Virus record (IMG/VR): IMGVR_UViG_3300025846_000006
Span: 1-40,055 of that record
Direction: 5' to 3' (one strand)
Length of the DNA stretch: 40,055 bases
Source of the DNA: a virus
The translations under genes and the position numbers were made by a program. Of this stretch, positions 11,055 to 27,260 are shown piece by piece. The notes beneath the pieces are model-generated. The model did not search any database. It was given only the letters and a program-made list of their open reading frames with translations, and was not told the DNA's origin. Numbering within the stretch: position 1 is the stretch's first letter; each line of letters begins with the position of its first letter.

Positions 11055-11068
11055 CCCCAAGTCTGCTA
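11055..11068 (-). promoter_or_regulatory. Start-associated-like box TAGCAGACTTGGGG (exact), here ~145 nt upstream of the next supported start
   Basis: Plus strand ccccaagtctgcta. It is preceded on the coding strand by TTGTCA-17-TAGACT. Confidence 0.6.
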
Positions 11069-11076
11069 CTTCGAAT

Positions 11077-11105
11077 AGTCTACAAGCGTGTTTATGAGTT
11101 GACAA
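11077..11105 (-). promoter_or_regulatory. Candidate sigma-70-type promoter TTGTCA-N17-TAGACT
   Basis: The -35 is plus tgacaa (11100..11105) and the -10 is plus agtcta (11077..11082). The box at 11055..11068 begins 8 nt downstream of the -10. Confidence 0.35.
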
Positions 11106-11634
11106 GTTCCTCACTAGTCCTATTTCCGATATGCGGTTTTGGACCCCGACGACCCCCTATTTCAGTGACATACAGCGCTTTCGCATCCACGGCTTCTGCA
11201 TAGGTCGGGTAGGTCCCGATATAGTGCGGTCCGCACCTCGCCCGAAACTTGCCTTCGACTGTTATGCGAATGCCAGGTGTTTCTGTTGGCAGAAGCACTT
11301 CCTCGATGTGCGGTTTCTGCGGCTTCTCTTGCCTGTTGGGAACATGCCGCCAATAGAGGAACTTCACGGCAGTCTTCGTCCTGCCGTCAATCGTCTCCCT
11401 GTCCAGCTCGAACAGGATGTCGTACTTCTTGGAAAGTCCACGGATGATGACCCCGGCGACATCCTTTTCGTTCCGTTCGATCATCTGGTCACGTAAAGCA
11501 TGGACGGCGTCACGCGCATTGCCTCCTTGATACTCAAGCACGACATTTCTGCCGTTGCCGTCCCTGCCGTCTCGTTTCATCGTCTTAAACCCAGCCACTC
11601 GTAGTAAAGGGGCCTTCTGTTCCTTTCCTTGCAT
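11092..11634 (-). CDS. AP2-like DNA-binding domain protein (possible regulator)
   Basis: 180 aa, with GGAGG-N6-ATG. The C-terminal GIRITVEGKFRARCGPHYIGTYPTYAEAVDAKALY fits the AP2 pattern (G+...gk..A.i.....lG.f.t.eEA..A). Confidence 0.55.
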   Translation of the reverse strand: MQGKEQKAPLLRVAGFKTMKRDGRDGNGRNVVLEYQGGNARDAVHALRDQMIERNEKDVAGVIIRGLSKKYDILFELDRETIDGRTKTAVKFLYWRHVPNRQEKPQKPHIEEVLLPTETPGIRITVEGKFRARCGPHYIGTYPTYAEAVDAKALYVTEIGGRRGPKPHIGNRTSEELVNS

Positions 11635-11761
11635 ACCTCGCCTCCGTGCTTCTTTCCGTGATGCCCTTCATTTCAGTTATGCAAGACCCCTCACCTGAAC
11701 TTGTCACTGGCCCGCTTTGGTAGGACGCGGCGAAGGGTATCTGCTCCCTTACGTCAAGTAG

Positions 11762-12061
11762 TCAGCACCCATTCGCAAAACGGTCTGTAACTCTGACGAC
11801 CTTGGCCTTTCCTGTCTTTACCTTTCGAAAATCCTTACAGCTCGAGCTAGAACATACAGATTCCGGCGGCCACGGGACCTCTGGCTGGCACACCTTCAAA
11901 TTGCAACTCCGGGACAAGCGAACGCACCAACCTTCGCCCTCAGGTTCAGATCCATCTTCACGCTGCTGAGCCACGCGCGAAACGAGCTCTTTTTGCATTA
12001 CGTGTGGAAACAGCTCGCCGACATATCCTTCGTCAACAACTTTCACGTCTGAGTCGTTCAT
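11762..12061 (-). CDS. Hypothetical protein, paralogous N-terminus (VDEGYVGELFP) with 13053..13259
   Basis: The start was trimmed to ATG 12061 (ATGA overlap). It shares the GYV.ELFP motif, and the DNA segment tggaaacagctcg, with 13053..13259. The tail is Cys-rich. Confidence 0.5.
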   Translation of the reverse strand: MNDSDVKVVDEGYVGELFPHVMQKELVSRVAQQREDGSEPEGEGWCVRLSRSCNLKVCQPEVPWPPESVCSSSSCKDFRKVKTGKAKVVRVTDRFANGC

Positions 12062-13056
12062 GCCTCTACCTCTGCCCCGACGTATTCCTTGCACTTCATG
12101 CGTGGCTTGTCACATCGGATAGGTCCAACGCATTGCTCACAGTCCGTTCCAATGAGCTGGCACTTGAAGCAGAGACAGCCGTTCTCCAAGCAATGCTGTT
12201 CCTTGCCTTCTTCTGTGCGAAAATCAGGACAAGCGCCGATCTTGCCGCCGGTGCCACCGATCTTCTTACAACGCTCGAACCCCTTGCAGTCGTGACAGCT
12301 CTTGCCCTCGTTGGCACAGGCAAGGCAGAGGCAATCGGAACAGTCCCACAGCATCTTGCCCGCGGAATACCATTTGCCGTCCAGGAGCACAGCGATCGGC
12401 TCTTTCACAGGCTTGACGGCCGGGGCTAGAATCGCCAACCGTTCTTCGTGCTCTTGCTTCCTCGATTCAAAACCTAGGCGTTCAATAACGTGGTCGGCTG
12501 GAAGTTCCGAAAGCAACCGGTCTATTGCCACGATGTCAGAGCGCAGAAACTGCATCTCCTGGTCATTCTTGGTGAATGGAGCAGGAGCTGGTTCGAGCTT
12601 TGGCTTCTTCGCCTTGACCGGCTTCTTCGTAGGTTCGATGGCAGGAGCTGGTGGGACAGCAAGCCAGGCGAGGTACGGCCCATAAGTGCAGTGAGGGTTG
12701 TCGCCATATGGGCTCCAATATTCGCAGGTGCTTCCGTTACAATGCGCACTGTTGAAATAGGCGCAGGGATGGAGCTTGAAAAAACGGATGCAGTGGATTT
12801 CCTCGCGTGGTTCGCTCCGGATGCATTCGTCACAGGGAAGATGGTTGCGGATAGCGTTTCCCGAGGCACAGTAGTACCACTCCTTGCTGAAGTCGAGACC
12901 CTCGTCCTGGCTAGATTCGATCTTCGGGACTGGCTGACGGAATGCCGCGCCCGCGAAGGTATCCACTGCCTTGCTCGCCCAAGGAGCTGCGACTAGCGTG
13001 ATCGGCTCATCGAACAGAGAGCCACACCATCCCGTATCTTTCGGCTGAGGTCTCAT
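12058..13056 (-). CDS. Cys-rich 332-aa protein of unknown function
   Basis: ATGA overlaps at both ends. There are two Cys-dense regions (CDECIRS..HCIRFFKLHPCAYFNSAHCNGSTCEY and DCSDCLCLACANEGKSCHDCKGFERC...CLENGCLCFKCQLIGTDCEQCVGPIRC). They are separated by a Pro/Lys linker and a helical segment. Confidence 0.6.
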   Translation of the reverse strand: MRPQPKDTGWCGSLFDEPITLVAAPWASKAVDTFAGAAFRQPVPKIESSQDEGLDFSKEWYYCASGNAIRNHLPCDECIRSEPREEIHCIRFFKLHPCAYFNSAHCNGSTCEYWSPYGDNPHCTYGPYLAWLAVPPAPAIEPTKKPVKAKKPKLEPAPAPFTKNDQEMQFLRSDIVAIDRLLSELPADHVIERLGFESRKQEHEERLAILAPAVKPVKEPIAVLLDGKWYSAGKMLWDCSDCLCLACANEGKSCHDCKGFERCKKIGGTGGKIGACPDFRTEEGKEQHCLENGCLCFKCQLIGTDCEQCVGPIRCDKPRMKCKEYVGAEVEA

Positions 13057-13259
13057 TCCAACACCGCATCCGGATCACAACGACCCAACAGGAAACAGGG
13101 CCACTGACCGTCCCCAGTTCCTTCTTTCTCAAACCTGCAGTGCACGCACTCAGACGCTCCTACATGCCTTCCACCATCATCCTCAGATCCACGGTTCCTC
13201 GACTGTGTGTTTGGAAACAGCTCGTCAACATAGCCACTGTCGACCGGCCCGCGTCTCAC
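13053..13259 (-). CDS. Hypothetical protein, paralogous N-terminus (VDSGYVDELFP)
   Basis: 68 aa. The GTG start overlaps the upstream stop (GTGA). Confidence 0.5.
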   Translation of the reverse strand: MRRGPVDSGYVDELFPNTQSRNRGSEDDGGRHVGASECVHCRFEKEGTGDGQWPCFLLGRCDPDAVLE

Positions 13260-13789
13260 TTCGCACCACCTATCCGCAGAATCTCAACAGGAACATTCTT
13301 GCGCCTGCCAAAATGTGTTGCTTCGTGCGTTGACCATAAGAACACATCTAGTTTGTAGCCTCTGATACTGCCACCAGTGTCAAGTACCTCACATACTTTT
13401 CCATTGTTATACCCGGGTATCCGTACTAGCGAGTGCATCGGCAATAAACACAAGTCTGCGGCGACACCTCCGACTCTTACTCGTTGTCCGGAAGCGGTCA
13501 TAAGAGGATTGCCGTCACATTCAGCCGCAGTCGGCGAATAACACGTTATCTCGAACTTTAGTAGTGCCTTAACAGGTTTTGACACCCTTGTCGTCACCTT
13601 TTCAGTGGGAAGTGCTACGCTTGCCAGCCTGCGAGCGACCCGGAAGTTGACGATATCCCCTGCGGTGGCCTGCCTGGGCGCCAGAAGCATGAGCATCAGA
13701 ACGAACAGCGCGACAAGGGCTGCCACGAGCAGGACAATGGCGATCTGGCTGTAGTCGACGCGCGCCCGCTTGCGAGAGGACGACTTCAT
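13256..13789 (-). CDS. Membrane-anchored 3D-domain protein (MltA/YabE-type cell-wall-binding or lytic fold)
   Basis: 177 aa. The N-terminal TM segment is IAIVLLVAALVALFVLMLMLLA. The 3D pattern is ITCYSPT..ECDGNPLMTASGQRV..GGVAAD...LPMHS.VRIPG.....CEVLDTGGSIRGYKLDVF. Confidence 0.7.
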   Translation of the reverse strand: MKSSSRKRARVDYSQIAIVLLVAALVALFVLMLMLLAPRQATAGDIVNFRVARRLASVALPTEKVTTRVSKPVKALLKFEITCYSPTAAECDGNPLMTASGQRVRVGGVAADLCLLPMHSLVRIPGYNNGKVCEVLDTGGSIRGYKLDVFLWSTHEATHFGRRKNVPVEILRIGGAK

Positions 13790-13932
13790 TTCTTCGCCCG
13801 CTTCTTGGCTTTCTTGTGAGACTTTAACTTGAGGTGCTTGAGGCCTTTGACAACTTGTTTGGCAGTGAGGTCTTCCCGCCAGAATTTCATGTAAGGAGGA
13901 TTGTAAGGTGCGAACTGCTCGCCTGAGGTCAT
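13786..13932 (-). CDS. Small basic protein
   Basis: 48 aa counted from ATG 13932 (ATGA overlap). It has a Lys-rich C-terminus. Confidence 0.4.
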   Translation of the reverse strand: MTSGEQFAPYNPPYMKFWREDLTAKQVVKGLKHLKLKSHKKAKKRAKK

Positions 13933-14147
13933 GGTATCCTCAATAACAGGTCGCCGAACGTCCGCGCCAAACTTCTGGCATAATCCTTGCACTTTCCGTC
14001 AGAGTTCTTGTCTCTACAGTTGGGTGCGTTTTCTAGCAACTTCCAACCACTTCCCGTTACGGGGTCAATATAAAAAGTCGCGCCAACGGCACACCGTTCG
14101 CCCGAGTATCGATCAAGGTAATGATGACAACTCGAACAAGTGTTCAT
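13929..14147 (-). CDS. Small Cys-rich protein
   Basis: 72 aa counted from ATG 14147 (ATGA overlap). The N-terminus is MNTCSSCHHY, followed later by C..G and NCRDKNSDGKCKDY. Confidence 0.45.
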   Translation of the reverse strand: MNTCSSCHHYLDRYSGERCAVGATFYIDPVTGSGWKLLENAPNCRDKNSDGKCKDYARSLARTFGDLLLRIP

Positions 14148-14629
14148 GCCTTGCCCCACGGATGCCCGGCGAGATCAAGATACTCGAACTTTAAGCGCTT
14201 GAACTCAGTATCACGATACCAGGGCGTCACCTTGACGAGCAACTGAGAGGATCGAACGAGATACTGCCACCGGGCTGGGGAAAGATGTTGTTGCCACCAT
14301 TCCTGACAGAGCTTCGGGTCGGCGTGTGGCGCGCCACTATTGACCTGATGGTCGTCATGGCAGCGCATTTCGATGTTCTCCGTGAGCCAACGCATGGACT
14401 TGTAGATGCCCTTTGGGAAGATGTGCGAGGCCTCGAGGTTTTCGGTTGCAGGGCAGACGACACAGTGGCCGCTGTCCCGGACCATGCAGATGTCACGAGC
14501 GATTGAATCAAGCGTCTTGACAGTCACATGCTGTGCTGCCACTTTCGCGATGCCCCCCTCAGAGCTTCGAGAACTTTTCCGTAGTGCCGTGCGACGTAAT
14601 GGTGTTCGCCGTAACTCCGTTCTTGTCAT
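14144..14629 (-). CDS. NinG/Rap-like recombination-associated protein (tentative)
   Basis: 161 aa. It has a basic N-terminus (RRTPLRRTALRKSSR), then RDSGHCVVC....LEASHIFPKG and RCHDDH, resembling lambda NinG-type proteins. It is preceded by the start-associated box. Confidence 0.5.
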   Translation of the reverse strand: MTRTELRRTPLRRTALRKSSRSSEGGIAKVAAQHVTVKTLDSIARDICMVRDSGHCVVCPATENLEASHIFPKGIYKSMRWLTENIEMRCHDDHQVNSGAPHADPKLCQEWWQQHLSPARWQYLVRSSQLLVKVTPWYRDTEFKRLKFEYLDLAGHPWGKA

Positions 14630-14636
14630 CTGAGAC

Positions 14637-14650
14637 CCCCAAGTCTGCTA
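14637..14650 (-). promoter_or_regulatory. Start-associated-like box TAGCAGACTTGGGG (exact), G-run 6 nt from ATG 14629
   Basis: The coding strand reads CTAGCAGACTTGGGGGTCTCAGATG. Confidence 0.65.
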
Positions 14651-14803
14651 GATTTTTGGTGCTATACCCCCGACCCCTCGCAGGGCCGAAATACTGTCCT
14701 AGTCTAGTGGTGCTATTCTGTCATGACCCTCTCCAAATACCCTGCTGGGTATGTCTTATCGGGAATACCGCATGAATGGCTCATAGCCTCTACCATAAAT
14801 TCC

Positions 14804-14995
14804 TTATTTACGGACATGACCCGCCGCCTCGAAGACAACTCTGTCGGCCCACTCAGCCTTTTTCCCCTTGTTCCACTGGGAAACAGGCCTCAGATAGCCA
14901 ACCACACGAGAGTAAACTTCCGTCCTGGTGCGCTTGGCTGCCGGGATGATGACACCGTTGTCCAGCTGGAGATCACCGTTTGCAAGTTCAACCAT
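14804..14995 (-). CDS. Stand-alone NrdD C-terminal (glycyl-radical loop)-like mini-protein
   Basis: 63 aa counted from ATG 14995 (GAGGTGG-N6-ATG). EVYSRVVGYLRPVSQWNKGKKAEWADRVVFE matches the conserved class III RNR C-terminal motif (R.xGYL....wN.GK..E...R), which carries the radical glycine. Confidence 0.6.
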   Translation of the reverse strand: MVELANGDLQLDNGVIIPAAKRTRTEVYSRVVGYLRPVSQWNKGKKAEWADRVVFEAAGHVRK

Positions 14996-15260
14996 AGGGT
15001 GCCACCTCACTGATGTCCGCTCCGCAGTTGGCGCAGACCATCGGGTTCTGATGTGCGAACTCTGCCGGGTCAATGAACCCACCTGGAGACCGATAGCCTT
15101 CCGGCTTGTCATCGATCGGGCGATGCCAGAAGTTGATACGCCCGCATTTTGGACAGCCGGTAGCTTTCAGACCAACATCTGCAAGTGTCGATTGCCGAAA
15201 ACGTCCACCGCTACCTCGTGCAATAATGTGTCCGTTTGATGCTTTGTAGGCTCGGTTCAT
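14988..15260 (-). CDS. Zinc-ribbon protein (CPKCG...CANCG), translationally coupled to the NrdD-like ORF
   Basis: 90 aa with two CxxC pairs. An 8-nt overlap (ATGGTTGA) links it to 14804..14995. Confidence 0.5.
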   Translation of the reverse strand: MNRAYKASNGHIIARGSGGRFRQSTLADVGLKATGCPKCGRINFWHRPIDDKPEGYRSPGGFIDPAEFAHQNPMVCANCGADISEVAPYG

Positions 15261-15335
15261 GGCTTCTCTGGGAAGTTGGTAATGGAAGTAACACTGACCG
15301 GCAGCTCGCTCATGGCCAGTGCTTCAAGCGCTGGA

Positions 15336-15976: not shown

Positions 15977-16467
15977 ACCGTCACCCCCAGCACTCCGCAA
16001 ACGAGCCGTCCCAGCACATCAACGAGAACTGGGCCCTGAGCTCCTATCTCGACGGGACGATGAAGCTGTACCTGGTATGCCAGAGTCCCCTTGAAGTCAA
16101 TCCTTATCTGTTCGATACGCAGACTGCCACGGTCTCCGTTTTCTGCCAGTGTCCGCACCCCCATCTTCTCGGCGACTTCCTTGGCATCCAGGGAGAGCAG
16201 CCACATCTCGAGGGTGTCGGCACGGTAGGCGGCATACGTGTGTGCACGAATCCCGCCATGCTGGTCTTTGGCTCCTTCGCCACACGCATCAAACTCGTGG
16301 AAATCAAACTTACCATTACCATGCAAGTCTTGTCCAGCGCACTGTTCGAACCACACACCATCGCAGGGACCGTATTCAATCCCATGGTCTGGCTGCGTCC
16401 GCACATGCCTCAGGAACCCTGCGTCATAAAGCCTCCTGCTGACTTCGAGTGATGTGTATTCGATCAT
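15973..16467 (-). CDS. Hypothetical protein
   Basis: 164 aa. ATGA overlap with the antirepressor gene. Confidence 0.55.
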   Translation of the reverse strand: MIEYTSLEVSRRLYDAGFLRHVRTQPDHGIEYGPCDGVWFEQCAGQDLHGNGKFDFHEFDACGEGAKDQHGGIRAHTYAAYRADTLEMWLLSLDAKEVAEKMGVRTLAENGDRGSLRIEQIRIDFKGTLAYQVQLHRPVEIGAQGPVLVDVLGRLVCGVLGVTV

Positions 16468-17195
16468 GCCACCACCTCGCAGATCATGTCAAATACTCGC
16501 CGCTGCCAATGCAACTGGTACACGCACTTGCCATTCTCCAGTTGGACCGGGAGTGTCTTGACGTAGTCCTTGCCCTTGTCAGAAGGAACCCACTCGCCGC
16601 CTACACGGTACTGCAAACCCGCGAATTGAAGGCGCTTGTTGGTCTCTATGCCAGACATACGCGGCGAGAACATCCTGCCGATCTGCGTTGGAGTCACATA
16701 TTCCAGAGCTGCCGATTCAGGCACCGGCAGCGCCGGGATCCCCTGGGCGATCTTGTCGACGCGCTGACTTACTTGGTCAACTTTGGCATTGGCCGCGGCG
16801 ATCTGCTGGTCCTGGCGCTCGAGGTCGTCCACGAGTCCGCGGAGGATACCATAGACGTTCTTCGAGCTTGGCGGGGTATAGCTGCCGGTCTTGCGGATTT
16901 GTGGAAGGACGTCGGACGCTACCCAGCTGGTGAACTTCTCTGCTTCGTCTTTCCGGCTCGTGAAGGCCAGCTTGTAGAGTCCGGCTTCTGTAATAACGGT
17001 CACTGTCTGCTTTCCCCCAAGGGTATCCACAGTACTGAGACCCTTCATGACGTCCGGCAACCGTGCCAACGCCTGCGACGTGTTAGCAATCGCCAGGACT
17101 TCACAGACGTCCCTTGCTATAAACCACGGTTCTCCATCCTTGTTCACGGTCCTCACTTGCTGCGTTTGATACTGAAACACCTGTAGTTCTTCCAT
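16464..17195 (-). CDS. Antirepressor: Bro-N domain plus KilAC/ANT C-terminal domain
   Basis: The start was trimmed to ATG 17195 (GGGGAGG-N6-ATG). The Bro-N pattern is LQVFQY....VRTV..DGEPWFIARDVCEVL, and the KilAC-like C-terminus is YVTPTQIG... Confidence 0.85.
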   Translation of the reverse strand: MEELQVFQYQTQQVRTVNKDGEPWFIARDVCEVLAIANTSQALARLPDVMKGLSTVDTLGGKQTVTVITEAGLYKLAFTSRKDEAEKFTSWVASDVLPQIRKTGSYTPPSSKNVYGILRGLVDDLERQDQQIAAANAKVDQVSQRVDKIAQGIPALPVPESAALEYVTPTQIGRMFSPRMSGIETNKRLQFAGLQYRVGGEWVPSDKGKDYVKTLPVQLENGKCVYQLHWQRRVFDMICEVVA

Positions 17196-17204
17196 TTGTT
17201 GCCT

Positions 17205-17218
17205 CCCCAAGTCTGCTA
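17205..17218 (-). promoter_or_regulatory. Start-associated-like box TAGCAGACTTGGGG (exact) in the 31-nt gap before ATG 17195
   Basis: The coding strand reads TAAGGTAGGACTAGCAGACTTGGGGAGGCAACAAATG. Confidence 0.65.
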
Positions 17219-17226
17219 GTCCTACC

Positions 17227-18024: not shown

Positions 18025-18850
18025 GGTCCTCAGCTCCGTCGAAGTCGTGTTCATTCGAGACAGATGTATGGCGTTGAAGGGTCTCACGTTTCGGAGGGTT
18101 AGTCAGATAGCTCTCGAACTTTGTACCGAACAAGGTCTCTGGCCTGAGATACGTCTGCATCTTCACATCGCCGTACCAGGCGAGGACCATGTTGTCGACG
18201 ACGGTCTTAAAGTTCTCCAGAGTGAAGCCTTCATGCCATCTTGCTCTGATCATTGCCTGTGTCTTGTCGGTCGAAGGTTTAAAGAGAGTGTGTGCCTTGG
18301 CGTTCAGATAGGCGATGATTTCAGGGTAGGGGATGGCGGGCGTTTTCTGCCCGACAATGGTTTTCTCTTTGGATAAGGATTCGGATAAGGATAAGGATAA
18401 GGATTCAGACGGCGGATTGTTGCAACTCGCCGCAACTCGCCGCAACTCGCCGCAACTCGCCGCCGATTGTACCAAGGTGTCGAGAGTAGCCGCAATGTGC
18501 TGCGCGTCGCTGCCATCTGCCGCAGGGAGCGGACACTTGTGACGCTTGTTGCGAACGCGCTGATGCTTCTCCCATTTGGACACCTGGAGATATTCTTTGC
18601 CTTCGGCCTGGTACAGGGTAATCAGGCCAACTCTAGCAAGGTCCAGCAGCCAGGTCTTCATATCTTCGACGGGTATTTTGCTGATGCGGAGAGGATAACA
18701 CCGTGCCAAGACAACGACCGGGCGAGCATCAGTACAGCCATAGTCGTCGACGACGACCAGCAATCGATAGAATAGGTTCTCTTGCGATGGACAGAGTTCG
18801 TCCAGGGTTTCAGATGTAAGGAGGGAATCACTGAGGATTCTATTCGACAT
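18011..18850 (-). CDS. Replisome organizer / DnaD-like replication initiation protein (phage TIGR02220-type C-terminus)
   Basis: The N-terminus is ..FYRLLVVVDDYG....GLITLYQAEGKEYLQVSKWEKHQRVR. The C-terminus is IIAYLNAKAHTLFKPSTDKTQAMIRARWHEGFTLENFKTVVDNMVLAWYGD..MQTYLRPETLFGTKFESYL. The start is ATG 18850 or GTG 18859. Confidence 0.8.
   Translation of the reverse strand: MSNRILSDSLLTSETLDELCPSQENLFYRLLVVVDDYGCTDARPVVVLARCYPLRISKIPVEDMKTWLLDLARVGLITLYQAEGKEYLQVSKWEKHQRVRNKRHKCPLPAADGSDAQHIAATLDTLVQSAASCGELRRVAASCNNPPSESLSLSLSESLSKEKTIVGQKTPAIPYPEIIAYLNAKAHTLFKPSTDKTQAMIRARWHEGFTLENFKTVVDNMVLAWYGDVKMQTYLRPETLFGTKFESYLTNPPKRETLQRHTSVSNEHDFDGAEDHVHD
18371..18406. repeat. Six tandem hexamers GGAT(A/T)(A/C) inside the organizer gene
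   Basis: ggataa ggattc ggataa ggataa ggataa ggattc. They encode SESLSLSLSESLS in the inter-domain linker. Confidence 0.85.
18422..18461. repeat. Four perfect tandem 10-bp repeats GCAACTCGCC inside the organizer gene (candidate origin iterons)
   Basis: The 10-bp unit is not a multiple of 3, so it is read in three frames (SCGELRRVAASC). The array is flanked by gattgt on both sides. Confidence 0.85.
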
Positions 18851-19061
18851 CGGGTTCACCGCGGCCTGGTGATCCGGATTCGAGGTCTTTCTGGTCAGCG
18901 ATCCACTTACGGACCCTGTCTTCCGGGAAGAGTTTCTGGCACAGGCGCATGAGTTCCTGACGCTCTGGACCAGAGAGGCTGGATTTCGCCGCCATGTCGA
19001 GGACGATATTTGGAATGAGAGTGCGCCCGCGTAGGGTCAATGGTGTCTTGCTCAGCTTCAT
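18840..19061 (-). CDS. Hypothetical protein, first gene of the replication operon
   Basis: 73 aa, with GGAGG-N6-ATG. Confidence 0.5.
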   Translation of the reverse strand: MKLSKTPLTLRGRTLIPNIVLDMAAKSSLSGPERQELMRLCQKLFPEDRVRKWIADQKDLESGSPGRGEPDVE

Positions 19062-19083
19062 CGCCTGCCTCCGCTATCTGACG

Positions 19084-19104
19084 GTGGCAAGGATGGCTTG
19101 CCAC
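19084..19104. promoter_or_regulatory. Perfect 8-bp inverted repeat GTGGCAAG-N5-CTTGCCAC in the operon leader (operator or RNA hairpin)
   Basis: It lies between the TTGACA-16-TATAGT promoter and ATG 19061. The half-site GGCAAGG recurs at 27294..27300 and, on the other strand, within 19341..19357. Confidence 0.5.
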
Positions 19105-19196
19105 ATGGGTGCTTCACATGGAACAGAGGGAAAAGGGGCCGTCCCCATGTGATGGCGTCGGTCAGTTGCAAGCTGGCCCAAGCCCCTTCCAATCGC

Positions 19197-19224
19197 ACTA
19201 TATCCACGTTTATTTGCATGTCAA
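19197..19224 (-). promoter_or_regulatory. Sigma-70-type promoter TTGACA-N16-TATAGT
   Basis: The -35 is plus tgtcaa (19219..19224) and the -10 is plus actata (19197..19202). It reads into 18840..19061. Confidence 0.55.
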
Positions 19225-19248
19225 GTGCCTATGGCAAAGCCCCGGTAG

Positions 19249-19262
19249 TAGCAGACTTGGGG
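19249..19262 (+). promoter_or_regulatory. Start-associated-like box TAGCAGACTTGGGG (exact), the only copy on the plus strand; no ORF follows
   Basis: GTAGCAGACTTGGGGTAAGCGA shares the GGGGTAAGCGA extension with the variant at 25909..25923. Confidence 0.55.
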
Positions 19263-19271
19263 TAAGCGACC

Positions 19272-19310
19272 ACCGAGGCTCCCCCAATTGTACAACATCC
19301 TCGGTTTTGT
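19272..19310 (+). terminator. Hairpin ACCGAGG-N20-CCTCGGT followed by TTTTG on the plus strand (weak terminator candidate; overlaps a minus-strand promoter)
   Basis: It has a 7-bp stem, a large loop containing the palindrome TTGTACAA, and a T-tract only on the plus strand. Confidence 0.3.
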
Positions 19311-19313
19311 CAA
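19287..19313 (-). promoter_or_regulatory. Second promoter candidate TTGACA-N15-TACAAT
   Basis: The -35 is plus tgtcaa (19308..19313) and the -10 is plus attgta (19287..19292). The spacer is short (15 nt). Confidence 0.4.
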
Positions 19314-19340
19314 GTGAGAGTTTTTTCATCTTGTGAGCAA

Positions 19341-19357
19341 GGCTCCTTGCCCCCTTG
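19341..19357. repeat. 17-nt element GGCTCCTTGCCCCCTTG, inverted copy of 27288..27304
   Basis: Exact reverse-complement identity with 27288..27304. Flanking similarity extends to about 35 nt. Confidence 0.8.
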
Positions 19358-19376
19358 GCTCCTAGGCGCTTAGGCA

Positions 19377-20183
19377 TCATGGCGTCTTGCCGTCAAGCGA
19401 TAGCATCGCCTTTGGGTACTGCTGGATCGTCTTACCATCCGGCCAGAAGTGTGACAGACTCTGCTTCTGGAACAAGGGGATACCATGCTGCAGTGCCTGA
19501 CTGCTAAGATCATAGACCCAGTCCGCCTTTGGCTGCCGGTTCTTTGACCCGGGTCCAGTCATCGCGCCGATCACCAACCAGTCGATGGTATCTCCCCAGT
19601 CCATGTACGGGGCAATGTCCTCGAGGAGGGGTTCTGCTGACGCCCAGGTATGCCAGCCTTCCTCATGGAGTGGCCACAGGTGATCGCGGAAGGTACTCGT
19701 GTCGTTTGCCGTGTCGAAGGTTGCACCCAGCCACCAGTTAGCATGGGGTTTGATCTTCTGCTGGTAGATGAACAGGCGCTCGTACCTCTCCGGGTTCTTG
19801 GTCAAAAACAAATACTGATGCTGCGGGGCTGCTTCACATGCCGCAAGCACCTGATTGATCCACTCGTCCGAGACCCAATCGCCGAACAAGTCGGCCATCG
19901 AGCAGACGAAGATGCGCGACGGCTTCTTGACCCACAACGGCTCACTCAGGCGGTAGCTGTGGAGCGTCGGAGCAAATCCATACTTCCATGCTCCGCCGTT
20001 GCCGACCATGTGTCTGATTTCGTGAAGGCCATTGCCCGGTTGGGTGCAATCGTCCCAGTTGTCAGTTTCCTTAGGAGTGAATCTCTGCGCCATTCGGCGG
20101 GCGTAGCAGTAGTCACAGCCGTGCTGACAGCCCGTAACCGGATTCCAGCTGTATTGCGCCCAGTCGATGCGTGTGCGGTTCAT
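19377..20183 (-). CDS. Gp37/Gp68 family protein (DUF5131, three-Cys motif)
   Basis: 268 aa. The N-terminus RIDWAQYSWNPVTGCQHGCDYCYARRMAQRF is the family signature. Confidence 0.8.
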   Translation of the reverse strand: MNRTRIDWAQYSWNPVTGCQHGCDYCYARRMAQRFTPKETDNWDDCTQPGNGLHEIRHMVGNGGAWKYGFAPTLHSYRLSEPLWVKKPSRIFVCSMADLFGDWVSDEWINQVLAACEAAPQHQYLFLTKNPERYERLFIYQQKIKPHANWWLGATFDTANDTSTFRDHLWPLHEEGWHTWASAEPLLEDIAPYMDWGDTIDWLVIGAMTGPGSKNRQPKADWVYDLSSQALQHGIPLFQKQSLSHFWPDGKTIQQYPKAMLSLDGKTP

Positions 20184-22732: not shown

Positions 22733-22733
22733 G

Positions 22734-23090
22734 TCAGGCCTCCCAAGTGAGACACACGACACGGTCGCCGTCAAAGATGTTCGCGTCAAGCTGTGCCCTT
22801 TCCCACGCATAGTCGTCAGAGAAAGCCGCAGTCAGCTCTCCTTTCTTGTTGACCACGCCCCACCCCTTATGCTTCGTGGGGACGAGCATGAGGTTTTGGT
22901 TTGTGTTGAACTCTTGCATCCCGCACGCATCCCAAGTCCCCACATGCTCATCGCCATTCTTGTCTGTCACCAAACCGAGAACTGGCCACCTTAAACCTCG
23001 ATCCACACACAGAATCCTCACGGGCTGGCTTGGATGATTTGTATCTCCGCGGGTCTGGTACTTGCCATCCATCGTAATCAGGCTAGCCAT
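22734..23090 (-). CDS. Hypothetical protein
   Basis: 118 aa counted from ATG 23090, overlapping the end of 23083..23334. Confidence 0.5.
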   Translation of the reverse strand: MASLITMDGKYQTRGDTNHPSQPVRILCVDRGLRWPVLGLVTDKNGDEHVGTWDACGMQEFNTNQNLMLVPTKHKGWGVVNKKGELTAAFSDDYAWERAQLDANIFDGDRVVCLTWEA

Positions 23091-23334
23091 TGCTCTTGAC
23101 CTCAGACTCGTCCGGACATTCATCCAGCAATCGATCAAGGATGACGTCAACTGGTTCAGCATGTTCCGCCTCGAGCGTCTCAGTGAGTTTCTTATTCCGC
23201 TGAATCTCAGCGACGTAGCAATCATGCAAATGTCGTATTGTGAACTCGTACCGGTCCTGTGTCCTGACATGTTCGATGACTGCGCCACAGAAGGCCGCGA
23301 TGATCAGGGCAACGAGGATGATCCAGGGGTTCAC
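23083..23334 (-). CDS. Small membrane protein (one N-terminal TM)
   Basis: 83 aa, GTG start. The TM segment is WIILVALIIAAFCGAVI. Confidence 0.5.
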   Translation of the reverse strand: MNPWIILVALIIAAFCGAVIEHVRTQDRYEFTIRHLHDCYVAEIQRNKKLTETLEAEHAEPVDVILDRLLDECPDESEVKSNG

Positions 23335-24218
23335 TAGAACCTCTCCGCAAATGCTCTCGCATCTGTGTCAGCTGCTTCTTTCGTGTGCTTTGCCAGTTCA
23401 ACGGCGAACTCAGGAGAGACACCATTCGGGACCTCGCCCTTTCCGAGAGTCAGTACCATATCGCAGACCTCATTCAGCAGAGCAGTCCCCGCGTCATAGG
23501 TCATCGTCGACAGAGAAGTGCAGTCAGGATCGTACTTCTTCGCCATTGCGCCGAGCTCGACGGGTGTCAGCTTCAGGAACTCTTGACCCTGTTTGACAAG
23601 GACCATCGTGCCATCGTCGATTGCCTTGACTGCTTCGGTTGGAGCTTCGCCCGTATCAGAGGTCACCACACAGGCAAGAGCCAGTCCGCTCATACTGATC
23701 GTCAGGCGGCGCTTCGCCTTTGTCTCGCACTTCATCATGGCATTGGACAGGTCCTCACCGTGCATGGGGCTGAACGTGCCATCGCCCTTGAAGTAGGATT
23801 TGCCCTCGGCGTTCTTGACCCACGATCCGTTCTCTTTCATAATCGGTACGGATGCAGACGCCTCGTCGAGCCGTTCATCGGCGATGCTCCCAAGTTTGCC
23901 CTGGACCATGACGGTGTAGACGCCATTTTCCTTGTCGGTCTCACGCTTCAGGACCTTCACCGACATCCCCTTGGCCGAGCGAATCTGGTCAAACGCTTCA
24001 GCCCTGGCATAGAGCACGAGCTTCTTGCCCCCGTCGCCCTTCATGGTCAGATACTCAAACGGCTTTGCCAGTGGATTCAGCCCTGCGCTATCACACATCC
24101 TGCGGTAATATGCCAGACGCTGGCTCACGTTTAATCCCGAAAGGTCTCCCTGGAGCAGAACCGTTTCGAGCGTCTTAGCGTCGATCTCAGTGCCAGTTGT
24201 TGCAATGTCTTTGTCCAT
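23334..24218 (-). CDS. RecT/Red-beta superfamily single-strand annealing protein (tentative)
   Basis: 294 aa counted from ATG 24218. LNVSQRLAYYRRMCDSAGLNPLAKPFEYL....KLVLYARAEAFDQI parallels the lambda Bet segment (..AQF..L....NQYGLNPWTKEIYAF). AMMKCETKAKRRLTISMSGLA parallels the conserved C-terminal helix. Confidence 0.6.
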   Translation of the reverse strand: MDKDIATTGTEIDAKTLETVLLQGDLSGLNVSQRLAYYRRMCDSAGLNPLAKPFEYLTMKGDGGKKLVLYARAEAFDQIRSAKGMSVKVLKRETDKENGVYTVMVQGKLGSIADERLDEASASVPIMKENGSWVKNAEGKSYFKGDGTFSPMHGEDLSNAMMKCETKAKRRLTISMSGLALACVVTSDTGEAPTEAVKAIDDGTMVLVKQGQEFLKLTPVELGAMAKKYDPDCTSLSTMTYDAGTALLNEVCDMVLTLGKGEVPNGVSPEFAVELAKHTKEAADTDARAFAERF

Positions 24219-24227
24219 GTAATTTCT

Positions 24228-24241
24228 CCCCAAGTCCGCTA
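24228..24241 (-). promoter_or_regulatory. Start-associated-like box variant TAGCGGACTTGGGG, 9 nt from ATG 24218
   Basis: The coding strand reads CAGAGCCAGGAGCTCTGAGATTAGCGGACTTGGGGAGAAATTACATG. The hairpin at 24246..24262 lies directly upstream. Confidence 0.6.
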
Positions 24242-24273
24242 ATCTCAGAGCTCCTGGCTCTGACTTGTCGTGC

Positions 24274-24936
24274 CTAGGCGCTAACGACCTCCCGTTGCAC
24301 CTTCGCCCGCCATTCCTCCGGCGTCTTGTCTCTCTTGGAATAGTTGCAGTGACCACACGCCGGAACTACGTTGTCCTTGGAGTGCTTTCCGCCCTTCGAC
24401 AGGGGTATGACGTGATCGAGAGTCAAATGGTCAAACTTTTTGTCGCAGTAGGCGCAATGACCGTCGGCTTCAGCAAGGATTGCCAACCACTCAGTCGACG
24501 TGAGCATTTCATCAAGAGGCGTGTTGGCGTATTTCAGAGCGCGGTGTTTGGCAGAATGCAGAACGCATTTCTCTGGATTGGCCTTGCACCAGAGGGCATA
24601 TCGCCGTGACAGTTTCTCTGCATTCTTCTGACGGCGAATGACATCACTAGCTGCCTTTCTCTCGTGATTTGCCGCATACCAAGAAACGCTCATCGCCTTC
24701 ACCTTGTCTGGATTCTTCTGACGCCATATCGCGGTCCTCTTCGCCAGTATCACTCGGTGCCCTTGGCAGTAACGACGACATGAGGCACGCTCCACTTCAA
24801 TGGCCTCCGGATGTTCCAAACGGCGACGTGCATGATACTCGCGCGACAGCTTTTGCAACTTGTCCTGATTGGCCAAGTAGTAGCGACGCCTGGATGCTTT
24901 TGCACCTTCCTTGCGCTCTTCCTCGGTCATCGCCAT
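24274..24936 (-). CDS. HNH endonuclease with an N-terminal basic repeat region
   Basis: 220 aa. The C-terminal HNH core is CAYCDKKFDHLTLDHVIPLSKGGKHSKDNVVPACGHCNYSKRDK. The N-terminus has repeated RR(Y/Q)...N(P/Q)(D/E)K units. Confidence 0.85.
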   Translation of the reverse strand: MAMTEEERKEGAKASRRRYYLANQDKLQKLSREYHARRRLEHPEAIEVERASCRRYCQGHRVILAKRTAIWRQKNPDKVKAMSVSWYAANHERKAASDVIRRQKNAEKLSRRYALWCKANPEKCVLHSAKHRALKYANTPLDEMLTSTEWLAILAEADGHCAYCDKKFDHLTLDHVIPLSKGGKHSKDNVVPACGHCNYSKRDKTPEEWRAKVQREVVSA

Positions 24937-24937
24937 G

Positions 24938-25564
24938 CTATTTCCCCCCAGTCTGCTTGGCTTCTGACTTTACTCGCGCGCCTGCTCCAACTGTTTGCGA
25001 GTGATCCCGGTGAGCTTTGTCAGCCTTGCCATTCGTTCTGGGGAGGGCATGCTTAGACCCCTTTCCCAGAACTGGATCGTTACCAGCGCCACTTTGAGTG
25101 ACCGCGCCATCGCCATCTGCGACAGTCCCTTGTTTGTCCTCCATACCTTTATCGGATGTTCTACCATCTTCAGCCTCCTGGGCTAGTGTATACAATGCTG
25201 CGGTTGCTGCGTCAAAGTGCTCTCTGAAGTAGTGAGCCCACGCGATGCCTGGTCGACCGTAGCCGGTGACACTGCGCCCGTTGCCATCTACAATGTACCA
25301 CAAATGCGAATAAGAGGAATCGAATACGGCCCTTACTGTTTGATCGGGTTGTAACGAGTCGCTCCACTTCTCATCGGTCAGTTCAACGCTGGATGGTGCA
25401 TAGTAGTTCATGTGTTTGAACCCCTGCGTCGCCCATAACAGTACGGTGAGTGGGGTCTTGCTGTCCTCAACGATCTGTGTTACCAAACCATGAAGCCCAT
25501 CAGATGTCGAGCCGTCTCGCACGATTATCACACGGTCGAGGAACTTCCGTTTCAGCTCACTCAT
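24938..25564 (-). CDS. Hypothetical protein; the C-terminal ~75 codons overlap the XRE gene out of frame and may not be genuine
   Basis: 208-aa ORF. The first ~130 aa look protein-like. The tail (GTVADGDGAVTQSGAGNDPVLGKGSK...) is low complexity and is the alternative frame of 24970..25167. Confidence 0.5.
   Translation of the reverse strand: MSELKRKFLDRVIIVRDGSTSDGLHGLVTQIVEDSKTPLTVLLWATQGFKHMNYYAPSSVELTDEKWSDSLQPDQTVRAVFDSSYSHLWYIVDGNGRSVTGYGRPGIAWAHYFREHFDAATAALYTLAQEAEDGRTSDKGMEDKQGTVADGDGAVTQSGAGNDPVLGKGSKHALPRTNGKADKAHRDHSQTVGAGARVKSEAKQTGGK
24944..24958 (-). promoter_or_regulatory. Start-associated-like box variant AAGCAGACTGGGGGG, 7 nt from ATG 24936
   Basis: The coding strand reads CCAAGCAGACTGGGGGGAAATAGCATG. 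Confidence 0.5.
24970..25167 (-). CDS. XRE/Cro-type helix-turn-helix protein
   Basis: 65 aa, with a perfect AGGAGG-N6-ATG. WRTNKGLSQMAMARSLKVALVTIQFWERG fits the HTH_3 pattern. Confidence 0.75.
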   Translation of the reverse strand: MVEHPIKVWRTNKGLSQMAMARSLKVALVTIQFWERGLSMPSPERMARLTKLTGITRKQLEQARE

Positions 25565-25679
25565 CGACGAGTCCCCACTTCACAAGCCAACCCATGCGTT
25601 TGAAAACCAAGATGATGCCAAGACCTACACCCACGATGACGCCAAGACCGAACGCAAGCAGGACCGTCAACGAGGTCAT
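25557..25679 (-). CDS. 40-aa single-TM peptide
   Basis: MTSLTVLLAFGLGVIVGVGLGIILVFKRMGW.... ATGA overlap with the upstream 58-aa ORF. Confidence 0.45.
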   Translation of the reverse strand: MTSLTVLLAFGLGVIVGVGLGIILVFKRMGWLVKWGLVDE

Positions 25680-25852
25680 GCGGCTCTCCCAAATGTGCCG
25701 ACAGAAGGCGCCTGCTGACAGGGTACGATGAAGGACCATGCTTGAAGGATCGACTGCCTGCGCTCAGATCGTTTTGCAGAACGAACGTAACGGTTGTACC
25801 CGTTCGGTGTGGTATGGTGGGACGTACCACTGCTTGTCATAACTGTTTTCAT
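25676..25852 (-). CDS. 58-aa basic protein (below the ORF-track cutoff), first ORF after the early promoter
   Basis: My own translation gives MKTVMTSSGTSHHTTPNGYNRYVRSAKRSERRQSILQAW.... ATG 25852 lies 6 nt after the G-run of the exact box. Confidence 0.45.
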   Translation of the reverse strand: MKTVMTSSGTSHHTTPNGYNRYVRSAKRSERRQSILQAWSFIVPCQQAPSVGTFGRAA

Positions 25853-25859
25853 TCTAAAC

Positions 25860-25873
25860 CCCCAAGTCTGCTA
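25860..25873 (-). promoter_or_regulatory. Start-associated-like box TAGCAGACTTGGGG (exact), 6 nt from ATG 25852
   Basis: The coding strand reads GGCGCCAGGAGTCGCCACTAGCAGACTTGGGGGTTTAGAATG. Confidence 0.65.
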
Positions 25874-25908
25874 GTGGCGACTCCTGGCGCCGCGTCTTAC
25901 TTCGCTTA

Positions 25909-25923
25909 CCCCCATGTCTGCTG
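25909..25923 (-). promoter_or_regulatory. Box variant CAGCAGACATGGGGG at the predicted transcript 5' end
   Basis: It starts about 6 nt downstream of the -10 of the 25928..25956 promoter and is followed by TAAGCGA, as at 19249..19262. Confidence 0.5.
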
Positions 25924-25927
25924 TTTG

Positions 25928-25956
25928 TATTATTATCCGTTGTATTAGTAGGTCAA
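25928..25956 (-). promoter_or_regulatory. Candidate early promoter TTGACC-N16-AATAAT
   Basis: The -35 is plus ggtcaa (25951..25956). The AT-rich -10 region is plus tattattat (25928..25936). Confidence 0.45.
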
Positions 25957-26032
25957 CAGCTCAAATAAGAAGACCTATTCACAATCAGGAACGCCGCTGT
26001 ACAAGCCCAGTAGAGCATGTGCAACGGCGTGA

Positions 26033-26088
26033 TAGGTGCCTTTATCTATTGGTGCCTAGGTGCCTAGCGTCCTTAGCCCCTAGCCTCC
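26033..26088. repeat. Short periodic repeats TAGNNNCC (8-bp period, 4 tandem copies plus one upstream) at and after the end of the RHH gene
   Basis: taggtgcc(26033), then taggtgcc tagcgtcc ttagcccc tagcctcc (26057..26088). Confidence 0.6.
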
Positions 26089-26309
26089 TTGCTGCCGTGG
26101 GGCATTAGTAGCTCGGGTTTCTTTTCCTGCTCCATGATCTTCTCTCGCTCAAGTTTCTCCAAGACTGCAACCTCTGAGAAGCTGGACCTGTTCCAACCCC
26201 GATGATGCACACACCAATCTCCGACCGCCACTGTCGTGCTTGTGTTCCAGTGGATCACCAACTTTTCTCTCGCCGGTTTCTCTTTCAATGCTCGATCAAG
26301 ATAGCCCAA
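26073..26309 (-). CDS. Ribbon-helix-helix protein, ParG-like centromere-binding candidate
   Basis: 78 aa, TTG start with GGAGG-N6. KLVIHWNTSTTVAVGDWCVHHRGWNRSSFSEVAVLEKLE fits a beta-strand, helix, G-x-(S/N), helix layout. It lies directly downstream of parA. Confidence 0.5.
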   Translation of the reverse strand: MGYLDRALKEKPAREKLVIHWNTSTTVAVGDWCVHHRGWNRSSFSEVAVLEKLEREKIMEQEKKPELLMPHGSKEARG

Positions 26310-27039
26310 GGGTGACCTCCAGTTCAGCCAGAAATGCCTTCCACGCCAGCGATACCTTCTCCCTCGGCGCGAACTCCCATACCGGCTCAGGTACGTCCAG
26401 CGCCTGCGTCACTCGAATGCTCGAGGGGATGATCGTGTCGAAGACGGCGGTGTCATACGTATCGTGAAGCATAACCGCGAAGGCCTTGGCATACGTTGTC
26501 CTCTCCTGGACGGCATTTAACAGGAGACCAGCAATCCGTAGGGAGGGGTTTCCATTCTCGCGAACGAAGATGACCTTGTTAAACAACCGCTTCATCGCGT
26601 CCTTGTTGAATTTGTCCGGGCGTACTGGAATGAGGACACAGTCTGCAGCGATGAGCGCGTTCGTGACCATAAGACCAAGGTGCGTCGGCGTGTCGAAGAT
26701 CGTCACCTGGTGGTCAAGTCTGGCGAGCAATTCACGGAGGCGAAAAGACCTTTCATAATCGGGATTCGCCTCGTATTCTCCCAAGGTATCGTCGCTACCG
26801 AGCAGATCCAAATTGAGAGTTACTGTCATAGGGGTCGGAGCCGCGACCTTCGGGGCGAAAACCTGTGTGATGCTATGTTCTTTTGGCAACTCCTGAGTCA
26901 AGAGACCGGTCAAGTTTGCCTGATCGTCCAGGTCAATGGCGAGCGTCGTCTTTCCCTGGGAGGCGAAGTAGCGGGCGATGTGATAGGCAATCGTTGTCTT
27001 GCCTACACCCCCTTTTAAGTTGCAGACGGCGACCTTCAC
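26296..27039 (-). CDS. parA: ParA/Soj-type partition ATPase (small, type Ib-like)
   Basis: 247 aa. It has the deviant Walker A VCNLKGGVGKTT and LAIDLDDQAN. The GTG start overlaps the upstream stop. Confidence 0.9.
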   Translation of the reverse strand: MKVAVCNLKGGVGKTTIAYHIARYFASQGKTTLAIDLDDQANLTGLLTQELPKEHSITQVFAPKVAAPTPMTVTLNLDLLGSDDTLGEYEANPDYERSFRLRELLARLDHQVTIFDTPTHLGLMVTNALIAADCVLIPVRPDKFNKDAMKRLFNKVIFVRENGNPSLRIAGLLLNAVQERTTYAKAFAVMLHDTYDTAVFDTIIPSSIRVTQALDVPEPVWEFAPREKVSLAWKAFLAELEVTLGLS

Positions 27040-27233
27040 AGCAGGCGCTCTGTCTCGGGAATCTGCTCCGTCAGGAGCGTAGCTTCCGGTGGCGTATCAT
27101 TGCAAGCACGGTACATGGCGTCAATTGCCTCATCGATAATCTGCGTTGGGTGCTTCCCCAAAGCCCGAGCCAGATACCTTACCTTTGCTCCCGTCAACTC
27201 ATCCAATTCAGGATGACTCTTCTTGTATGTCAT
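27036..27233 (-). CDS. Small protein upstream of parA
   Basis: 65 aa counted from ATG 27233, preceded by a degenerate box and GGGGAG. Confidence 0.45.
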   Translation of the reverse strand: MTYKKSHPELDELTGAKVRYLARALGKHPTQIIDEAIDAMYRACNDTPPEATLLTEQIPETERLL

Positions 27234-27246
27234 GGACTCCCCTTTT

Positions 27247-27260
27247 CCCAAGTCCACTGG
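27247..27260 (-). promoter_or_regulatory. Degenerate start-associated-like box CAGTGGACTTGGGA
   Basis: The coding strand reads CCAGTGGACTTGGGAAAAGGGGAGTCCATG. Confidence 0.4.

Follow-up and report, generated by a model that had tools for sequence, protein, structure and literature searches.

Which function could preserve a box of 14 nucleotides (nt) in front of start codons scattered over a virus genome, and why should one copy of it face the other way? This question is raised by IMG/VR record IMGVR_UViG_3300025846_000006, of which we analyzed positions 1 to 40,055 as a whole (hereafter the window). The window represents a siphophage-type genome of some 40 kb in circularly permuted form; its minus strand holds nearly all genes. 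The box, TAGCAGACTTGGGG, occurs there in five exact copies, four on the minus strand and one on the plus strand, all where the original prediction, made from the sequence alone, had placed them. We conclude that the box is a genuine, selected element of a new phage clade, and that it resembles the start-associated sequences (SAS) of Cluster K mycobacteriophages. New here are box alleles that are specific to lineages, together with a hairpin that contains the complement of the box (the anti-box) and co-varies with it. The best explanation that we can offer is that a trans-acting antisense RNA, or an RNA leader, binds the box by base pairing and so prevents a regulon from being translated, which we regard as possible, if slightly short of an even chance.

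A repeated box at translation starts

Chance was rejected as the origin of the box copies, both by shuffling and by the expectation derived from base composition. No exact copy appeared in 100 shuffles of the window and only 0.0003 were expected, in line with the earlier estimate of far fewer than one. When up to one mismatch was allowed, we found 6 copies against 0.014 expected, and with up to two mismatches 8 against 0.29, seven of them forward and one reverse (Table 1). Among the variants listed by the original prediction, those at 24228-24241, 24945-24958 and 25910-25923 hold, with one, two and two mismatches, respectively. The variant at 27247 has four, and the partial copy at 22739 is marginal, with ACTTGGG (7 nt) alone in common with the box. 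We counted the weak element at 27246 only because its orthologue in the relatives L077 and L081 carries the box of that lineage (type B in L081).

Six forward copies end 7-9 nt upstream of an ATG or a TTG, and in these cases the G-run of the box is the sole Shine-Dalgarno sequence. The six start codons to which copies had been assigned earlier are all real ATGs, and five of them do have a box ending 7-9 nt upstream; at the sixth (27233), the weak element CAGTGGACTTGGGA (27246-27259) sits 12 nt before the ATG, which has a separate Shine-Dalgarno, GGGGAG. The claim that all copies lie in the early half of the genome and none in the packaging genes does not stand, as the copy at 11055 heads the packaging and structural operon, downstream of the late promoter at 11105-11077. 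The first open reading frame (ORF) of this operon (10903-11046, 47 aa, TTG start) has a counterpart in L077 at 63% identity.

The gaps that contain boxes had also been considered too short for a promoter, which is wrong for the copy at 11055 and for the variants at 25910 and 27247. At least three copies are located directly 3' of sigma70-like promoters. Over all lineages, a recognisable promoter precedes only about one third of the boxes, and the 3' part of the box is a correctly spaced Shine-Dalgarno; we therefore rejected the box as a promoter or as a universal 5' end of transcripts. Two other candidates were discarded as well. A local AGAC/GTCT hairpin in the box region was found at only two sites, and the 5' part of the box showed no pairing with the 3' tail of 16S rRNA beyond the Shine-Dalgarno (compared by eye with the canonical Escherichia coli-type tail, which may not be that of the host). 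No common repeat was found in the upstream flanks of the boxes. Upstream of the box at 14637 (window 14651-14700, minus strand) and in its orthologues there is a conserved element, GGCCCTGCGAGGGG...GGGGTATAGCA, and the orthologues in L069 and L077 have a promoter-like TTGAGC-N18-TATAGC/TATGGC that was seen by eye and not rated highly by the promoter scorer.

Box types across related phages

The original prediction had advised searching for the box in related phages. Scanning IMG/VR for the 14-mer returned five related contigs, 70-90% identical to the window and each with multiple exact copies, and more distant relatives were found by protein-anchored searches. The box is exact in the relatives with 70-90% identity although the flanking bases diverge, and for this reason we conclude, from sequence conservation, that it is under selection.

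The more distant relatives bear other boxes at orthologous genes, so that five box types, A to E, can be distinguished (Table 1); the box genes compared were Ant, the first late ORF, the RHH gene, the 58-aa gene and the HNH-like gene. All five types have a purine-rich Shine-Dalgarno at their end, and the distance from box to start codon is 5-9 nt in most copies. To judge from these comparisons, the unit is a Shine-Dalgarno plus 8-10 specific bases, and all copies within one genome change together. The orthologue of Ant has the box of its own lineage in types A, B, C and D, while in type E (L088 905) the gene 3' of the box is Ant-like judging only from its first codons. Additional IMG/VR scans for types B, C and D gave mostly chance matches and one new contig, and no box system was seen in the distant relatives L079, L089, L091, L092 and L101-L105. 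Boxes can also occur in tandem: three copies lie in the late-operon leader of the type-E phage (L088 6900-6948), and in both type-B phages two copies flank the ATG of the HNH-like gene (L081 8888-8918; L090 8837-8869).

The concerted change of boxes bears on another role offered by the original prediction, that of a linker at module boundaries. As a recombination linker or the boundary of a mobile cassette, the box would keep its identity as a crossover point for module exchange, which HNH endonucleases might stimulate. Two of the box genes are HNH nucleases, short homology islands surround the boxes at 14637 and 17205, and some homology blocks stop exactly at a box (for example, L004 2063-2329 versus window 24945-25208). 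However, boxes exceed other gene starts only about twofold in the frequency of homology break-points (11 ends of high-scoring segment pairs per 7 boxes versus 31 per 38 starts), and some of the 11 are locus ends or come from type-B loci (L081, L090) in the comparison. Orthologous genes with lineage-different boxes indicate concerted change rather than shared linkers, and an inverted linker would promote inversions. We consider a linker role very improbable.

An inverted copy in a predicted hairpin

The original prediction treated the inverted copy as a mere further copy. It is not start-associated, as there is no start codon nearby on the plus strand; on the transcribed minus strand it is the exact complement of the box, lies in a promoter-proximal hairpin and co-varies with the lineage. 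Each of eight contigs that span types A-D has one inverted copy only, which matches the box type of its own genome exactly in A-C and at 11 of 12 positions in D (L083). In these eight contigs the anti-box is on the transcribed strand, about 25-35 nt 3' of the -10 element of a conserved promoter (promoter P1) and upstream of rep, DnaC and Ant.

The -35 motif of promoter P1, CTTGACAAA/CTTGACAAT, is present in 9 of the 9 relatives that have the region, and in L080 and L081 the promoter reaches a scan score of 10/12 as TTGACA-17-CAGAAT. In A and B lineages a strong second promoter (P2) directly follows the anti-box; C and D lineages have instead a rep gene with its own box variant. P2 would drive a 73-aa ORF, the replication initiator, the DnaC-like loader and Ant, and the anti-box is not contained in P2 transcripts.

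In the window, the predicted hairpin around the anti-box has a minimum free energy of -26.4 kcal/mol (z = -4.1), and none of 200 shuffles folds as well. All eight anti-box sequences are predicted to fold into one type of hairpin, in which 8-14 pairs enclose the anti-box, with energies between -19 and -28 kcal/mol and z between -1.5 and -4.6; for four of the hairpins, no more than one shuffle in 200 folds equally well. C is abundant in the apical loops (CCCAA, CCCC, CUCCUA, CCC), including those of L065 and L260, which are longer or shifted. Since the stems could not be aligned by sequence (MAFFT and RNAalifold), we used a helix-anchored comparison instead. The stems co-vary: 9.5 of 10 positions pair with the arm of the same hairpin, compared to 4.6 of 10 with arms from other lineages. 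L065 has the box type of the window and a rebuilt stem, with 10 of 10 positions pairing with its own arm and 3 of 10 with that of the window.

Two different readings of this region were rejected. A protein (56-aa ORF 19210-19380) is not supported, as the reading frame is not conserved past promoter P1: the frames of the window and L080 differ from that of L065, and L081 and L090 differ by radical amino acid changes with pairing kept. A small RNA (sRNA) or a terminator on the plus strand is not supported either, as the T-run is the complement of the P1 motif TTGACAAAA and neither a promoter nor a start codon is found nearby on that strand.

We scanned the 21-nt hairpin loop for duplexes with both strands of the window. 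The top seven sites on the minus strand are six box-containing translation-initiation regions and the leader of the early operon, with energies between -26.6 and -33.3 kcal/mol, the median being -9.8. The early-operon leader is the best non-self site in the window (-33.3 kcal/mol), and its complementarity runs 7 nt past the box, where GGGGGTAAGCGA pairs with the loop flank UCGCUUACCCC. The duplex between the loop and the translation-initiation region of Ant, which is encoded on the same strand, reaches -32.3 kcal/mol, with 14 perfect base pairs over the Shine-Dalgarno. Single-base variants of the box lean towards G.U compatibility with the anti-box (5 compatible changes, A>G or C>T, versus 2 incompatible transitions, read by eye), and the A-to-G change in the variant TAGCGGACTTGGGG is compatible.

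Given these sequences, their conservation and co-variation, the predicted fold and the promoter-like sites, we infer that the region gives rise to an RNA that represses the box genes by pairing with their boxes. In this view, the box would extend the Shine-Dalgarno in a form specific to each lineage, and the genes so tagged would make up a regulon: those heading the early and late operons, those for Ant and for two HNH-type nucleases, and the 294-aa gene; the first cistron of the partition (RHH-ParA) operon would be tagged by a weak box-like element only. Promoter P1, just 5' of the replication module, would transcribe a hairpin of about 50 nt with an apical region perfectly complementary to the box and a C-rich loop that would serve as anti-Shine-Dalgarno. 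The regulator could be a short sRNA or the 5' leader of P1 transcripts, and it would pair with the boxes in trans; in C and D lineages it would, in addition, pair in cis with the variant box at rep. Such pairing would occlude the ribosome-binding site and repress translation. Polarity would be likely on the early and late operons, and perhaps on the partition operon, because the first cistrons of these operons are box or box-like genes. The outcome would be an RNA-based control of Ant and of lytic functions, akin to the control of ant by the c4 RNA of phages P1 and P7. An RNA element for translational control, one of the three roles offered by the original prediction, is thus the one that fits best. 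Taken as a whole, that interpretation was right about the likeness to SAS and about the RNA element, and has to be revised for the inverted copy, the linker, the promoter gaps and the packaging genes.

The c4 RNA (immI: c4-icd-ant) pairs at the ribosome-binding region of its target, with which it shares strand and transcript, and its specificity bases co-vary between P1 and P7. Related phage RNAs are the sar RNA of P22 and the CI RNA of P4, the latter in the leader of the replication operon. In P1, which is a ParA-type plasmid prophage, the trans-acting antisense c4 RNA down-regulates production of the anti-repressor Ant (PMC8546580, which cites Citron and Schuster 1992). The hairpin described here is similarly complementary to the ribosome-binding region of ant and encoded on the same strand. 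It differs from c4 in that there is no homology in sequence or structure and that the predicted targets are 6-8 dispersed translation-initiation regions rather than one operon. No Rfam family reached the gathering threshold in the window, and the C4 RNA family gave no match in 19050-19400 even at E <= 10. A CopA-like RNA (RF00042) matched at 19231-19310 on the minus strand with 20.8 bits (E = 0.21); as this is far under the 60-bit gathering threshold, the hairpin is not a member of the CopA family.

C-rich loops that mask Shine-Dalgarno sequences are known from RNAIII and the Rsa RNAs of Staphylococcus aureus, and CopA-type RNAs are antisense RNAs that act through kissing loops. As in RNAIII and the Rsa RNAs, the apical loop of the hairpin is rich in C and complementary to ribosome-binding sites rich in G. 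In contrast to RNAIII, the Rsa RNAs and CopA, perfect complementarity here extends over 11-16 nt, and one box is common to all targets.

Two side observations concern sequences next to an anti-box or similar to it. In the window (19120-19197, minus strand), P2 transcripts would open with a structured leader of about 90 nt before the 73-aa ORF (18840-19061), in which GGAAGGGGC at the 5' end and GCCCCUUUUCC would form a stem, with a U-rich tract behind it; comparable long-range stems and U-runs are found in L080 and L065 (all read by eye). To judge from the sequence, the replication operon may have an attenuator here, or another small RNA. L087, a more distant relative, has eight forward copies of CAAAGGAG(A) 5-9 nt upstream of start codons and one reverse copy, UCUCCUUUGG, which is intergenic (14150-14236, plus strand) and lies after TTGTAG-N17-TATAAT and before a strong terminator hairpin with U7. 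In its layout the locus resembles a canonical sRNA gene that has the anti-box in its 5' part, an ambiguous case in that the box is close to a plain Shine-Dalgarno.

Parallels, competing readings and genome context

The closest precedent named by the original prediction, SAS, is apt, including its remark that the sequences are unrelated. SAS are asymmetric 13-nt sequences located 3-7 nt upstream of the starts of non-structural genes, and K1 phages share a single SAS in opposite orientation (Pope et al. 2011, PMC3203893). Their function was still termed unknown in 2024-2025 (PMC11373665, PMC12699233), and our literature search found no paper linking SAS to a small RNA. As with SAS, the box is an asymmetric repeat of 13-14 nt with a Shine-Dalgarno core, nearly always in one orientation and a few nt upstream of the start codons of a subset of genes (mostly non-structural ones for SAS). 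As in K1 phages, one copy in opposite orientation is found away from gene starts, here at 19249-19262. In contrast, the box is unrelated in sequence to the SAS consensus GGGATAGGAGCCC, the phages themselves are unrelated, and the boxes have no ESAS-type 17-bp imperfect inverted repeats upstream, only some of them having ordinary sigma70-like promoters. Copies number 7-8 here and 11-19 in Cluster K. Moreover, the box varies by sub-lineage and the reverse copy co-varies with it, whereas in Cluster K all subclusters have one consensus and the loop has drifted in some.

The reverse SAS of phage Anaya (JF704106) lies at 59870-59882, in a non-coding gap of 385 bp near the right genome end. There, GGCCUCCUAUCCC takes up the apical loop (CCUCCUAUCC, 10 nt) of a hairpin with approximately 17 bp (59840-59900; L400 39841-39901); Adephagia has a counterpart (NC_051610, about 58631-58744), and 128 phages of Cluster K have kept the region. 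In a sample of eight of them the helix is 90.6% paired, with one compensatory pair, and six of the eight loops retain CCTCCTATCCC. The parallel with Cluster K is real but imperfect.

Several observations weigh against an antisense RNA that reads the boxes. Within Cluster K, the loop of Ekdilam has drifted though its SAS is canonical, and the loop of SirPhilip is unrelated. In the window, promoter P1 has a 15-nt spacer and was missed by the promoter scan, about half of the anti-box is internally paired in the minimum-energy fold, and no canonical intrinsic terminator was found 3' of the hairpin in scans of the window and of the L080/L081 region. In addition, two box-bearing genomes without an anti-box still hold 4-5 exact forward boxes. 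L082 (4010-4090), which is about 85% identical to the anti-box-bearing L084, has promoter P1 and, in place of the anti-box loop, only a short hairpin, GTGCCGGCAC; 3300002071_14 and 3300002072_3 (L037 3650-4100) have neither DUF5131 nor promoter P1, the hairpin or P2. As the boxes are exact in these genomes, their conservation may not depend on the anti-box, and the boxes may have a reader that is independent of it.

The box could also be an autonomous cis-acting cassette for translation initiation, with strong or specialized ribosome binding, perhaps recognized by a factor of the host or an RNA-binding protein of the phage (compare RegA of T4), and with the anti-box acting locally in cis as an anti-Shine-Dalgarno or attenuator of the replication-operon leader. 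The exact boxes of anti-box-less genomes agree with such a cassette, as does the retention of box and spacer before different N-termini. In C and D lineages, furthermore, the anti-box lies 30-40 nt upstream of the box variant of rep and can pair with it (14 bp in L084, including one G.U, read by eye), and B lineages have a box-like TAGACTGGGG after the anti-box. In A and B lineages, however, P2 lies between the anti-box and the first gene of the replication operon, which has no box. Ribosome binding does not need 8-10 exact, lineage-differing nucleotides upstream of the Shine-Dalgarno, the 5' part of the box is not complementary to the 16S rRNA tail compared above, and a protein binding the forward strand of the RNA leaves the reverse copy on the same strand unexplained. 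We regard an autonomous cassette as unlikely.

The co-variation between inverted and forward copies would equally be produced by a DNA-binding protein, a further point against the antisense RNA. In this case the boxes would be dispersed asymmetric DNA sites for a phage regulator, the inverted copy an operator between promoters P1 and P2, and the box types would track the specificity of the regulator. Stoperators are a possible model: these DNA sites for the immunity repressor are mostly intergenic and are tied neither to a Shine-Dalgarno nor to a fixed distance from the start codon. In Cluster A mycobacteriophages (L5 gp71 sites), stoperator motifs differ between related phages (PMC6550527, PMC9283540), and the C1 repressor of P1 binds 22 dispersed operators (PMC8546580). 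The boxes share with stoperators a length of 13-14 bp, asymmetry, dispersal, a predominant orientation relative to transcription and motifs that vary between phages. Several of them fall within +1 to +20 of a promoter, the late leader of L088 has boxes in tandem, and genomes without the anti-box still have boxes. On the other hand, DNA sites leave unexplained why every type contains a Shine-Dalgarno and most copies are 5-9 nt before a start codon, and why the inverted copy retains the Shine-Dalgarno-like part and is enclosed by a stem that evolves through compensatory change. Unlike with stoperators, the odd copy is in a co-varying hairpin, and the ORFs scanned (Pfam, PHROGs) contained no detectable HTH or CI-type repressor; other repeats, at 27.3-27.9 kb, would be better suited as operators. 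It is improbable, in our judgment, that the boxes are sites for a DNA-binding regulator.

No isolated phage is close to this one. The window had no megablast match among 50,697 phage records, its major capsid protein is at most 34% identical to that of any isolate, and TerL of the identical type was seen only in metagenome assemblies. The nearest genomic TerL (48-53% identity) is found in metagenome-assembled genomes of Acidobacteriota, which tentatively points to this phylum as the host clade; the assignment is tentative because TerL is otherwise metagenomic only and the nearest genomic match just 48-53% identical. Scanning GTDB with the lysis protein gave no match. Recognisable genes of the window include TerL, the portal, the major capsid protein, the tape measure, a ParA-like protein, the replication initiator and the DnaC-like loader, as well as Ant/Bro, several HNH/EndoVII nucleases and DUF5131.

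Table 1. Box copies, box types and associated predicted features
Feature	Sequence	Position	Strand	Context
Forward box, exact	TAGCAGACTTGGGG	11055-11068	-	8 nt 3' of late-promoter -10; 8 nt 5' of TTG of the first late-operon ORF (10903-11046)
Forward box, exact	TAGCAGACTTGGGG	14637-14650	-	7 nt 5' of ATG 14629, HNH-like 161-aa gene (14144-14629)
Forward box, exact	TAGCAGACTTGGGG	17205-17218	-	9 nt 5' of ATG 17195, Ant/Bro anti-repressor gene (16464-17195)
Forward variant, 1 mismatch	TAGCGGACTTGGGG	24228-24241	-	9 nt 5' of ATG 24218, 294-aa gene
Forward variant, 2 mismatches	AAGCAGACTGGGGG	24945-24958	-	Before ATG 24936, HNH endonuclease gene (24274-24936)
Forward box, exact	TAGCAGACTTGGGG	25860-25873	-	7 nt 5' of ATG 25852, conserved 58-aa gene (25676-25852), first gene of the early operon
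5' leader with variant (25910-25923, 2 mismatches)	CAGCAGACATGGGG + GGGGGTAAGCGA	25884-25923	-	Directly 3' of promoter 25956-25929
Weak box-like element, 4 mismatches	CAGTGGACTTGGGA	27246-27259/27260	-	About +1 of promoter 27290-27262, leader of the RHH-ParA operon
Anti-box	CCCCAAGUCUGCUA	19249-19262	- (transcribed)	Exact complement of the box (the inverted plus-strand copy)
Hairpin around anti-box (predicted fold)	apical loop CCCAA	19236-19282	-	13 pairs
Promoter P1 (predicted)	TTGACAAAA, 15-nt spacer, TACAAT	19287-19313	-
Promoter P2 (predicted)	TTGACA-16-TATAGT, 11/12	19197-19224	-	Directly 3' of the hairpin
Late promoter (predicted)	TTGTCA-17-TAGACT	11077-11105	-	Kept in relatives
Sigma70-like promoters (predicted)		27290-27262, 25956-25929, 19224-19197, 11105-11077	-
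Box type A	TAGCAGACTTGGGG			Window, L080, L065, L085 and others
Box type B	GCGGACTGGGGAG			L081, L090
Box type C	CGATCTAGGAGGATC			L084, L082, L260
Box type D	TCGATCTGGGAGGATC			L083
Box type E	GAGACCTTGGAGG			L088

Some neighbouring features were recorded in passing. Four HNH/EndoVII-type nuclease genes are present in this 40-kb genome (9712-10083, 14144-14629, 24274-24936 and 27936-28418); two of the four are preceded by boxes, and which of them are present varies among relatives. The region 27300-27950, which adjoins the RHH-ParA operon, comprises 650 bp with no convincing minus-strand ORF and contains two copies of TT(A/T)TCTGCAT (27493 and 27734) and an inverted one (27780), as well as three 11-bp units, ACCCnnCAAGTA, in tandem (27825-27858); these repeats may be operator or centromere sites. 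The 102-aa ORF at 14804-15112 (minus strand) has a match to anaerobic ribonucleotide reductase (PF13597, residues 62-94) in the C-terminal glycyl-radical end alone and may encode a GrcA-like 'spare part' protein. Finally, the contig L078 (34% GC), in which the DUF5131 gene is the sole shared gene, has at its end twelve tandem 24-bp repeats (AAACTCAAGCGTAG plus a GC-rich spacer; 1-277); they are unrelated to the box.

A broader proposal can be built on the antisense RNA. The hairpin RNA of about 50 nt would be the master post-transcriptional repressor of the clade, and its loop a lineage-specific 'address' found at the early and late operons and at Ant, with a weak copy at the partition operon. 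Changes of address in loop and boxes would create new RNA-based immunity specificities, of which types A-E would be examples, and the same logic, with a reverse SAS in a hairpin loop, would explain the SAS of Cluster K, unexplained for 15 years. We advance this proposal as a doubtful one, which we think rather less likely to be true than false.

Start-associated boxes have been known since 2011, and a mechanism for them is still lacking. The same kind of element is now seen in an unrelated, uncultured clade that probably infects Acidobacteriota. This clade offers what Cluster K could not, namely several box alleles at orthologous genes and a single co-varying reverse copy in a hairpin predicted to be driven by a promoter. 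In this way 'function unknown' becomes a concrete model, which is applicable to the tractable mycobacteriophages. If the model is true, these phages would possess a multi-target sRNA regulon with a programmable address and possibly an RNA basis for heteroimmunity.

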